Program-made: the position numbers and the translations under genes | Notes under the pieces: model-generated | What the model was told of the DNA's origin: nothing | Database searches by the model: none | What the model saw: the letters and a program-made list of their open reading frames with translations, nothing else | Origin: Escherichia coli | Lineage (GTDB): Bacteria > Pseudomonadota > Gammaproteobacteria > Enterobacterales > Enterobacteriaceae | Length of the DNA stretch: 64,000 nucleotides | Strand: one strand, 5' to 3' | NCBI RefSeq assembly: GCF_003790525.1 | Contig: NZ_CP033635.1 | Part shown: in pieces, positions 15,964 to 16,850 of the stretch | Position numbering within the stretch: position 1 is the stretch's first letter | Layout of the letters: each line of letters begins with the position of its first letter

Positions 15964-15980
15964 GCATGAGACATAACGAA

Positions 15981-16475
15981 CTATTTAAGACATTCCTGCA
16001 AATCAGCCAATGTTGCCATCAGTATCATAGAATCGACAGGCGATGGTTCAAACCCCACTCGCAGATAAAACTCACGGGCCTGGTCTGATAACGCATGGAC
16101 CAACATTCCGCGAATACCAATGACTTCAGCCGCCTGTAGTACTCGTAGACCGGCATCTCTGACCATCGCACGACCGATGCCCTGACCCTGTAATGATTTA
16201 TCTATTGCCAGACGACCAAGTACTACAACAGGGATCGGTTCTGGCATATTTCGGCGAAATCGTCCTGTCGCGACATACGTTTCAACGGCGCTGGAAGCAA
16301 GCGAATAATATGCCAAAACGTTGCTATACGTATCACAGCTAACAAATGTACGTGATGCGCCGGCAAGCTGATTTTTTAGGGCTCTCTGCTTTAGCCAGTT
16401 ATCCATCGTTTCTACTCCCGAGCAAAAAGAGGTGAATTGATGCCTTGCCATGAGTGGCTCGGGGGCCTGAATCAT
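15981..16475 (-). CDS. GNAT-family acetyltransferase toxin (TacT/AtaT/ItaT-like type II toxin)
   Basis: 164 aa from ATG at 16475, with GGGAG Shine-Dalgarno 8 nt upstream. Acetyl-CoA-binding motif [11 protein letters not shown] and C-terminal FYLRVGF motif typical of tRNA-acetylating GNAT toxins. Confidence 0.8.
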
Positions 16476-16764
16476 TTTTTTTGCTCCCACGGCGCGGGTG
16501 TTTGCATGGTTTTGCGTAATGCAGCATTGGGCGCGGGGGCTGATCCAGACGATTCAAAAATAGCTGGTAATCATCAGAATCGATCCTGAAAATTCTCTGC
16601 TCAATGAGCGCCTCTTCAGCTGCGGCTCTGGCGGCCTCAAGGACAAATTCGGTGCGATTTTTTCCTCGGGCTTTAGCGGCCCGGTCAATAAGATCGCGTT
16701 CTGCGGGTTTTATGCGCAAGTTTAAAGATTCGCGCCTGGCTGGAATGTTATTGGCTGCTGGCAT
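16399..16764 (-). CDS. DUF1778 / ribbon-helix-helix antitoxin (TacA/AtaR-like); 3' end overlaps the toxin by 77 nt
   Basis: ATG at 16764 preceded by AGGA; [47 protein letters not shown] is a typical RHH antitoxin core. The ORF continues through an A8 tract into the toxin CDS; one extra A would end it at a canonical ATGA overlap. Confidence 0.75.
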
Positions 16765-16795
16765 AAATATATCCTTCGGCTTTGCGTGGATGATA

Positions 16796-16827
16796 ATTAT
16801 ACAGCACATGTAACGCTAATGTCATTA
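16796..16827 (-). promoter_or_regulatory. Predicted sigma70 promoter and palindromic operator of the toxin-antitoxin operon
   Basis: Minus strand: -35 ATGACA (16825-16820), 18 nt spacer, -10 TATAAT (16801-16796); palindrome TAATGtCATTA (16817-16827) overlaps the -35. Confidence 0.55.
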
Positions 16828-16850
16828 CAGCAAAGATGCTACCCCTGAAA

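Follow-up and report, generated by a model that had tools for sequence, protein, structure and literature searches.

A tacAT2-type toxin-antitoxin islet with a frameshifted antitoxin gene between flgL and rne in an Escherichia coli genome

For the Salmonella pair TacT2(SEn)/TacA2, growth arrest by the toxin and its relief by the antitoxin have been demonstrated, and toxicity is abolished by either of the substitutions R88G and Y137F and weakened by E29 (PMC5959882). LC/MS analyses established that in vivo acetylation by TacT2 and the other clade D toxins is almost confined to Gly-tRNAGly; the tRNA preferences of AtaT and ItaT are broader or different (PMC9177977). The same study defines a "true TA clade" by the ATGA-coupled two-gene layout and the DUF1778 partner (PMC9177977). 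In Klebsiella pneumoniae, KacT2 (clade 2) is reportedly 88% identical to TacT2 (PMC9431474). The Klebsiella KacA-KacT pair forms an A4T2 heterohexamer on a palindromic operator with conditional cooperativity, and the structure of the complex resolves the antitoxin elements betaB, alphaC, a PPAP linker and alphaD, the last of which lies over the acetyl-CoA site of the toxin and contacts it through residues 75-86 of KacA (PMC6698736).

We analyzed a stretch of 64,000 nucleotides of an E. coli genome (contig NZ_CP033635.1; hereafter the window), in which the first-pass annotation had described a GNAT toxin and ribbon-helix-helix antitoxin cassette of ~890 bp between the flgL and rne terminators, in an interval that in K-12 holds no gene. 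Both statements were borne out. The strain-specific segment measures 880 bp (15966-16845) and lies between the two terminators where they had been placed, and the flgL-rne interval of a K-12 derivative is without a gene. On its minus strand the islet encodes an antitoxin of the DUF1778/TacA type and a GNAT toxin. Its features and those of its borders are as follows.

15886, plus strand: flgL stop
15928-15963, plus strand: flgL intrinsic terminator (hairpin 15928-15956 with a 12-bp stem plus T7; T-run to 15963)
15966-16845: strain-specific islet, replacing a 63-bp K-12-type filler, with the same junctions in all examined carriers
15981-16475, minus strand: GNAT toxin gene (164 aa from ATG, plus stop; identical to RefSeq WP_000613626.1)
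16065-16067, minus strand: codon of Tyr137, the catalytic general acid, from alignment to PDB 7AK7 (Phe at this position in the 7AK7 chain)
16173-16190, minus strand: QGQGIG acetyl-CoA pyrophosphate-binding motif (Q/RxxGxG/A), toxin codons 96-101
16484-16487, minus strand: toxin Shine-Dalgarno GGAG, 8 nt upstream of the toxin ATG (direct sequence reading)
16772-16776, minus strand: antitoxin Shine-Dalgarno AAGGA, serving the ATG at 16764 (direct sequence reading)
16796-16825, minus strand: sigma-70-like promoter (-35 ATGACA at 16825-16820, 18-nt spacer, -10 TATAAT at 16801-16796)
16817-16827: perfect palindrome TAATGnCATTA overlapping the -35, a candidate operator for the ribbon-helix-helix antitoxin, proposed from sequence conservation only
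16846-16879, minus strand: rne intrinsic terminator (hairpin 16879-16856)
16898, minus strand: rne stop

Structure and distribution of the islet

The two genes are closely framed by the neighboring terminators. The end of the flgL-terminator T-run is 18 nt from the toxin stop codon, and the flgL hairpin probably also terminates the convergent toxin transcript. At the opposite border, the rne terminator lies directly upstream of the TA promoter and is co-directional with it. This promoter matches the consensus at 11 of 12 positions. The palindrome at its -35 falls within a conserved block (GTAATGACAT..GCGTTAC..GTG.TGTATA), and the promoter/operator block is kept in the Salmonella and Klebsiella orthologues despite their unrelated flanks. 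Because the toxin gene has its own GGAG Shine-Dalgarno, translation of the toxin can start independently of the antitoxin. The islet is an unusually clean, minimal TA unit comprising a promoter, a putative operator, two genes and 15 bp of 3' sequence, and it sits between two terminators without a trace of the insertion mechanism.

The term "insertion" used at first reading needs qualification: the segment is strain-specific, but its 880 bp take the place of 63 bp and do not form a clean insertion. The 63-bp K-12-type filler is unrelated to the islet (local alignment score of 9 against a shuffle mean of 10.1, not significant), a result that rules out descent of the filler from the islet by deletion. 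The sole sequence common to the two is the 8-nt CAAAGATG near the right junction. Our search for flanking direct or inverted repeats at the islet returned only short repeats at chance level, and no mobility genes were found near it, in agreement with the first-pass annotation. A mobile element (IS, transposon, integron cassette or prophage remnant) was rejected for the lack of significant flanking repeats, of a nearby mobility gene, of homology between islet and filler, and of any genuine plasmid copy of this allele. We also rejected the idea that the E. coli allele came from a plasmid or phage, because the sole "plasmid" matches at 100% were records of 0.73 and 4.9 Mb that are evidently chromosomal.

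Among complete E. coli genomes, the cassette showed the presence/absence polymorphism with identical flanks that had been anticipated. It is carried by 685 of 5,426 genomes (about 13%, ~1 in 8), always on the chromosome and always at the flgL-rne site, and the non-carriers, K-12 included, match in the flanks only and have the 63-bp filler instead. The reference strains E2348/69, 042, IAI39, SMS-3-5 and CE10 are among the carriers. A genome with only 5% coverage, considered as a possible third type of occupant at flgL-rne, proved to be a divergent empty site. A scan of one genome per species yielded 49 loci with identities of 30-71%, distributed over Alpha-, Beta- and Gammaproteobacteria and Bryobacterales; the same scan returned none in Escherichia or Salmonella, with exact 8-mer patterns that would miss divergence at the level of TacT2.

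Family assignment of the gene pair

RefSeq already annotates both cassette genes, and the pair, already known by annotation, has a well-studied TA pair of Salmonella as its orthologue. The toxin carries the motifs LQGQGIG (residues 95-101) and FYLRVGF (residues 136-142) by which it had been recognized as a GNAT protein, and it matches the Pfam families Acetyltransf_7 (E 7e-9), Acetyltransf_10 (E 6e-7) and Acetyltransf_1 (E 7e-6). The call of a DUF1778 ribbon-helix-helix antitoxin was equally sound: the 38-residue DUF1778-type core spans residues 14-51, and the intact antitoxin allele matches Pfam TacA1/DUF1778 (PF08681) with an E-value of 1.5e-26 over residues 14-88. Both proteins align over nearly their full lengths with PDB 7AK7, which we take to be the Salmonella TacT2 Y137F-TacA2 complex. 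Identity reaches 119 of 162 positions (73%, E 8e-76) over residues 1-162 of the toxin and 79 of 97 (81%, E 1e-45) over residues 1-97 of the antitoxin (7ak7_C). Alignment to 7AK7 also located K29, R88 and Y137 in the toxin. Bit scores of the toxin against PDB entries fall from 257 for 7AK7 to 155 for TacT (7F36/5FVJ), 76 for KacT, 65 for AtaT and 61 for TacT3 (6G96), and the PDB matches of the antitoxin rank in the same order. The earlier assignment to a TacT/AtaT/ItaT-like family holds by both Pfam and PDB, and within it the pair is specifically a TacAT2 orthologue. ItaT, which had been named among the likely kin, was ruled out: ItaRT is located at EcHS_A0501, ItaT is a 19.8-kDa protein (PMC6125619), and no ItaT match was returned from the PDB at E <=1e-3.

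Taken together, we consider the pair very probably a self-contained and presumably autoregulated GNAT/DUF1778 type II toxin-antitoxin operon orthologous to Salmonella tacAT2, in identity as in general mechanism. That an ordinary small-molecule or protein N-acetyltransferase and its cognate transcriptional regulator, rather than a TA system, would be 73% (toxin) and 81% (antitoxin) identical to the biochemically characterized and crystallized Salmonella TacT2 and TacA2, keep every residue required for TacT2 toxicity and show the ATGA-coupled layout and DUF1778 partner that are hallmarks of the "true TA clade" (PMC9177977) is hardly credible, even if NCBIfam offers a specific model for neither protein and only weak, sub-threshold matches to generic GNAT (ArsN2, RimI) and YlcI models, and the PADLOC defence-system models do not match the gene pair.

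Homology at 73-81% identity also predicts the toxicity, target and operator binding of the E. coli pair. The tRNA target had been held to be unreadable from sequence, which was too pessimistic. Because TacT2 and the clade D toxins are almost exclusively specific for Gly-tRNAGly in vivo (PMC9177977), the window toxin would acetylate aminoacyl-tRNA, with Gly-tRNAGly as the most likely target. In an intact module modeled on characterized homologues, a dimer of the ribbon-helix-helix antitoxin would bind the palindromic operator that overlaps the -35, and the C-terminal betaB-alphaC-PPAP-alphaD segment would wrap the toxin and place alphaD over the acetyl-CoA site. Once freed, the toxin would dimerize and transfer an acetyl group from acetyl-CoA to the alpha-amino group of charged tRNA, most probably Gly-tRNAGly, and translation elongation would stop upon this acetylation. 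Peptidyl-tRNA hydrolase could reverse the damage (PMC5959882).

The antitoxin reading frame

The first-pass annotation took both genes as intact, but the antitoxin gene of the window carries a frameshift that costs it the 20 conserved residues at the C terminus. When the gene is aligned with three intact alleles, it shows a 1-nt deletion in a C6 tract that shifts the frame after codon 77 (Pro77), with the following consequences for the gene.

16399-16764, minus strand: antitoxin ORF in the window (121 aa plus stop: 77 native and 44 out-of-frame residues)
16534-16764, minus strand: antitoxin residues 1-77, still in the native frame (ribbon-helix-helix DNA-binding domain, betaB, alphaC, and the PPAP linker up to its second proline)
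16535-16539: frameshift site, G5 on the plus strand and C5 on the coding strand
16472-16533, minus strand: displaced native 20-residue segment (alphaD) with its TGA stop, now read in the wrong frame

In place of residues 78-97 stand the 44 unrelated residues, and the last 77 nt of the ORF are shared with the toxin gene. Intact alleles, as seen in relatives, encode a 97-aa antitoxin whose TGA overlaps the toxin ATG in a canonical 4-nt ATGA overlap. The full betaB-alphaC-PPAP-alphaD segment and this overlap, both absent in the window, are present in 683 of the 685 carriers. Conservation is highest in what is lost: 18 of 20 positions are identical to TacA2 in residues 78-97, versus 13 of 22 in residues 56-77. 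The QPPAPN of the antitoxin aligns exactly with KacA 70-75, and by extrapolation from KacA, residues 78-97 would form the helix alphaD over the acetyl-CoA site.

Comparison with the closest genome, that of strain LS45, can be read in two ways. The window is only 5 SNPs away from it in 64 kb, and for at least 12 complete genomes this base is the sole difference over 18 kb; all of these genomes have an intact antitoxin, as expected if the deletion were an assembly or basecalling artefact and the strain carried a canonical, intact tacAT2-type module like its near-identical relatives. On the other hand, the antitoxin deletion is the only indel in the 64 kb, and all 7 other G/C runs of at least 6 nt and all 17 A/T runs of at least 7 nt in the window are unaltered. 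The position of the lesion is suspect. G/C homopolymers near GATC are a classic place for long-read basecalling errors, and here a G6/C6 homopolymer lies 4 nt from a GATC (the tract reads G6 in 600 of the 685 carriers and GGGAGG in some others). The lesion is found in only 2 of the 685 complete carriers, and five public assemblies that have it, on different backgrounds, share a deletion in an A6 run of flgL, a likely sign of systematic error at homopolymers. We regard an artefact as a substantial possibility, though not the one we expect.

The wider record of the lesion argues for a genuine mutation. RefSeq flags the same lesion as a "frameshifted" pseudogene beside an intact toxin in strains 2015C-4136CT1 and E686, the exact 121-aa product is encoded on 17 contigs, and a sister allele appears in 93 blocks of the collection. 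Of 10 loci with the sister allele, eight encode the wild-type toxin and are free of further indels across 5.4 kb, on backgrounds that differ by 0.3-0.5%, and the lesion is therefore genuine in nature. The same lesion occurs on at least three antitoxin haplotypes. Because it recurs in many assemblies on diverged backgrounds without other indels in 5.4 kb, the tract is one that does mutate in nature. On balance, we lean toward a deletion that is real in the source strain.

Translated from such an allele, the frameshift product would keep the DNA-binding domain, betaB and alphaC, lose alphaD and gain a 44-residue nonsense tail, and translation of the tail would cross the ribosome-binding site and start codon of the toxin. 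Losing the best-conserved segment of the antitoxin beside a wild-type toxin should harm the cell if alphaD is essential. If the deletion is real, its tolerance may reside in the remaining antitoxin interfaces, which could still bind and partly neutralize the toxin and still repress the promoter. Read-through across the toxin start may, in addition, reduce toxin synthesis, and peptidyl-tRNA hydrolase may clear the leakage. Auxiliary interfaces of TacA-TacT partly compensate when the main one is disrupted, according to the summary of Grabe 2021 given in PMC12301738.

A real deletion could also mark a decaying module without current function, in which a pseudogene stands in for the antitoxin gene and the toxin, through low expression, weak activity or prior tolerance, has in effect fallen silent. 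RefSeq labels the allele a pseudogene, and the toxin has changed in some frameshift loci: one lineage carries G101D, at the last glycine of the acetyl-CoA motif, and others carry W27R, A32V or A154V, a pattern that would fit relaxed or compensatory inactivation. A natural weak allele is, moreover, known in TacT2 of Salmonella Typhimurium (E29; PMC5959882). Yet the window toxin is the wild-type consensus protein, with K29, R88, QGQGIG and Y137, and the retention of the wild-type toxin by 8 of 10 sister-allele loci argues that the truncated antitoxin still acts or that the lesion is young and recurrent. Decay is, in our judgment, unlikely.

Under a real deletion in a tacAT2-type operon, one could go further and propose that the E. 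coli-specific C6 tract is a slippage-prone contingency switch that, by losing or regaining one C, toggles between full-length and alphaD-less antitoxin, a notion we consider very doubtful. Were it true, the alphaD-less antitoxin would still repress the operon and neutralize the toxin less completely, and there would be heritable, reversible lineages in which Gly-tRNA acetylation, arrested growth and persistence are more likely. Its occurrence on at least three haplotypes beside a wild-type toxin would then make the lesion a mark of selection, not decay. The locus itself is of little weight, and the record of the window is corrected in that the antitoxin is not intact. As a natural combination of an alphaD-less antitoxin and a wild-type toxin, however, it offers a ready test of the need for the TacA neutralizing segment in vivo (the "auxiliary interface" question).

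Comparison with known systems

Salmonella enterica TacAT2 shares with the E. coli pair the lengths of the proteins, the ATGA overlap and the promoter/operator block. K29 of the E. coli toxin corresponds to the active S. Enteritidis state of TacT2, and R88 and Y137 are common to both toxins as well. The surroundings differ: the copies that we retrieved from Salmonella and Klebsiella adjoin a gene for an AraC-family regulator or cystathionine beta-synthase, and one of them is on an IncHI2A plasmid. The C6 tract is present in the E. coli antitoxin gene, whereas the Salmonella and Klebsiella genes are without it.

The Klebsiella toxin that we retrieved, presumably KacT2, is 74.8% identical to the window toxin. 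Klebsiella KacAT2 lies on the chromosome and matches the E. coli pair in architecture and operator block, but it occupies a different locus. It is also reportedly cross-neutralized by the plasmid antitoxin KacA3 (PMC9431474), a behavior not known from E. coli.

More distant is Klebsiella KacA-KacT (PDB 5ZGN; PMC6698736), which belongs to the same fold family and serves here as the structural template; the alignment of the antitoxins covers residues 10-86, and both have the linker QPPAPN. The distance is apparent in both proteins (E 4e-20 for the toxin and 2e-7 for the antitoxin), and KacT is a member of the broad-specificity clade A, not of the Gly-specific clade D (PMC9177977). E. coli itself has other GNAT/DUF1778 type II TA systems, AtaRT, AtaT2 and ItaRT, which acetylate aminoacyl-tRNA like the family of the window pair but reside at other loci and are much more distant from it (AtaT, E about 1e-16).

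The flgL-rne islet and its boundaries

Two minus-strand genes sit between the flgL and rne terminators, as described in the first-pass annotation, and both hairpins lie where it had placed them. The features of the locus, together with a deacetylase gene elsewhere in the window, are as follows:

15886, plus strand: end of flgL
15928-15956, T-run to 15963: flgL terminator hairpin
15966-16845: window-specific segment (880 bp)
15981-16475, minus strand: toxin ORF, the downstream gene; 164 aa from ATG, with QGQGIG and FYLRVGF
ends at 16399, minus strand: antitoxin ORF, the upstream gene; ribbon-helix-helix core present
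16535-16539: 1-nt deletion in a G-run (coding strand C5, not C6)
16809, minus strand: in-frame upstream ATG of the antitoxin
16879-16856: rne terminator hairpin
16898, minus strand: end of rne
about 50130-50950: cobB, Sir2-family deacetylase gene (by correspondence with 29335-30156 of L067, the locus from the closest genome, LS45)

The observation is real. Elsewhere the window holds core genes, arranged from mdtH to phoQ as is usual (according to how a near-identical genome is annotated), no gene separates flgL from rne in a K-12 derivative, and the anticipated presence/absence polymorphism was found by megablast of the spacer, with the cassette in 685 of 5,426 complete E. coli genomes (12.6%) and flank matches alone in the remainder. 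The cassette is single-copy and chromosomal in all 685 carriers; E2348/69, 042, IAI39, SMS-3-5 and CE10 are among those listed. The islet is also minimal: the 880-bp segment replaces 63 bp of K-12-type filler, to which no similarity was detected, and leaves 15 bp from the left junction to the toxin stop codon and ~80 bp of promoter and leader upstream of the antitoxin. As first noted, there are no mobility genes at the locus and no meaningful repeats flanking it. The Salmonella and Klebsiella orthologues lie in genomic contexts unrelated to that of E. coli, and their homology to the islet starts only ~10 bp inside the right junction. The conjugative IncHI2A plasmid pPJT15-330kb of Salmonella sp. 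(locus L079) carries one TacAT2-type module, whose toxin shares 75% identity with the E. coli protein. Therefore, the TacAT2 subfamily can move on plasmids, although in E. coli the allele is confined to the chromosome.

The orthologues share a conserved promoter/operator block, GTAATGACAT..GCGTTAC..GTG.TGTATA.TTA..ATCCAC, which contains predicted -35 (ATGACA) and -10 (TATAAT) elements and the perfect palindrome TAATGnCATTA. By analogy with characterized homologues, this palindrome is the candidate operator at which a ribbon-helix-helix antitoxin dimer would repress the operon. Starting at ATG 16809 would extend the antitoxin to 112 aa in the intact allele (the form in some records, P0019) or to 136 aa in the window, yet this codon is probably not translated because the predicted -10 element (16801-16796) is located downstream of it. 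Next to the islet, the C-terminal half of rne has an in-frame 12-bp indel polymorphism (17127-17135): RNase E has 1057 aa in the window, LS45 and strain HCM-27C-1 and 1061 aa in most other strains examined. CobB of Salmonella has been reported to deacetylate TacA; the presence of cobB and the islet in one window is a coincidence, because cobB is a core gene ~33 kb away.

Family assignment and predicted toxin activity

Both proteins gave the significant profile matches expected of them: Acetyltransf_7, _10 and _1 for the toxin (E 7e-9 to 7e-6) and TacA1/DUF1778 for the intact form of the antitoxin (E 1.5e-26). In a search of all PDB sequences, the best match of both was 7AK7 (toxin, E 8e-76, 119/162 residues identical; antitoxin, E 1e-45, 79/97), which we presume to be the entry of Grabe et al. 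2021. These profile and structure matches are far beyond chance. Our reading of 7AK7 as the Salmonella TacT2-TacA2 complex is based on its toxin chain, which has Phe opposite window Tyr137 and Lys at position 29, a match to the TacT2(SEn) Y137F variant that Rycroft et al. 2018 reported (PMC5959882). Farther toxin matches were, in descending order, TacT (5FVJ/7F36), KacT, AtaT and TacT3. ItaT was set aside as the product of another locus, EcHS_A0501 (PMC6125619). TacAT-family proteins at 50-71% identity are widespread in Proteobacteria, and RefSeq already labels the pair 'GNAT family N-acetyltransferase' and 'type II toxin-antitoxin system TacA family antitoxin / DUF1778'.

The toxin gene of the window encodes the consensus wild type (WP_000613626.1), has its own Shine-Dalgarno sequence (GGAG, 8 nt upstream of the ATG) and keeps K29, R88, the acetyl-CoA motif and Y137. 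In TacT2, R88G or Y137F abolishes toxicity and E29 instead of K29 weakens it (PMC5959882). Judging from the homologues, the freed toxin would dimerize and N-acetylate aminoacyl-tRNA with acetyl-CoA, blocking elongation until peptidyl-tRNA hydrolase undoes the block (PMC5959882). We predict Gly-tRNAGly as the target because TacT2 and other clade D toxins acetylate it almost exclusively in vivo (PMC9177977).

A frameshift in the antitoxin

Intact alleles encode a 97-aa antitoxin whose TGA overlaps the toxin ATG. With the deletion, which the first-pass annotation did not notice, the frame is lost after Pro77, within the PPAP linker, 44 unrelated residues take the place of the native last 20, and the ORF ends 77 nt into the toxin gene. 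The C-terminus of KacA comprises betaB (52-56), alphaC (57-70), the linker 71-PPAP-74 and alphaD (75-86), and alphaD packs at the acetyl-CoA-binding site in the KacA-KacT structure (PMC6698736). Antitoxin residues 75-80 align exactly with KacA QPPAPN, and the lost segment is the best-conserved part of the neutralizing region (18/20 residues identical to TacA2 vs 13/22 for residues 56-77). For these reasons, the lost segment likely matters. As in the homologues, the antitoxin C-terminal segment would wrap the toxin, and the frameshifted protein may retain repression and part of the toxin binding (betaB, alphaC). A summary of Grabe 2021 describes several interfaces in TacA-TacT pairs that partly compensate for each other (in PMC12301738). 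Ribosomes on the extended ORF would, in addition, cross the Shine-Dalgarno sequence and ATG of the toxin, and toxin initiation may drop. Because the extended ORF of frameshift alleles covers the true toxin start, gene callers place the start at internal Met24 instead (141 aa; L055-L078, locus 2859-3284), and this annotation artefact conceals the intact 164-aa toxin. Alternatively, the module may be decaying: one frameshift lineage has toxin G101D at the last glycine of QGQGIG, in the acetyl-CoA motif (codon 101 in loci L057-L060, L062 and L064), and other, single frameshift loci have W27R (L075), A32V (L061) or A154V (L055). These missense changes could be compensatory or reflect inactivation under relaxed selection.

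We lean towards the deletion being real in this particular genome. Over all 64 kb, the window differs from LS45 by five SNPs and one indel, the antitoxin deletion, and its other homopolymers (seven G/C runs of at least 6 and 17 A/T runs of at least 7) are unaffected. Seventeen contigs from independent samples encode the identical 121-aa product, the collection lists a sister frameshift allele (Thr9) in 93 blocks, and the lesion is also found in a third haplotype. Eight of ten sister-allele loci have no further indel in 5.4 kb, flanks that are 0.3-0.5% different and a wild-type toxin, and two complete genomes whose flgL and rne alleles differ have this lesion marked 'frameshifted' in RefSeq. 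An assembly or basecalling artefact is nonetheless a possibility that we take seriously without favouring it: at least 12 complete genomes match the window over 18 kb save this base and one SNP, only 2 of the 685 carriers have the lesion (against 600 with the G6 tract), the deletion falls in a homopolymer adjoining GATC, and five public assemblies with the lesion, from different backgrounds, also have an A6-run deletion in flgL, which resembles systematic error. This 1-nt deletion (15207-15213; GGAAAAAATTG) splits flgL in L056, L060, L061, L063 and L064 and is probably a systematic homopolymer error there; the run is intact in the window itself. We judge the antitoxin G-run to be a true hotspot of mutation in natural strains. 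Two of the five SNPs to LS45 lie 2 nt apart in mfd (46521 and 46523; GGATCC here vs GGGTGC), a change that may be on the LS45 side because its Mfd protein accession is private to that genome.

Relation to known TacAT modules

The E. coli pair is an uncharacterized further member of a known toxin-antitoxin family: the family, structure and mechanism are already known, hundreds of genomes have the locus annotated, and no paper on the flgL-rne module turned up in literature searches. The sole, mildly interesting feature is a natural alphaD-less antitoxin beside a wild-type toxin, at a C6 tract that the E. coli antitoxin gene has, whereas the Salmonella and Klebsiella orthologues lack it.
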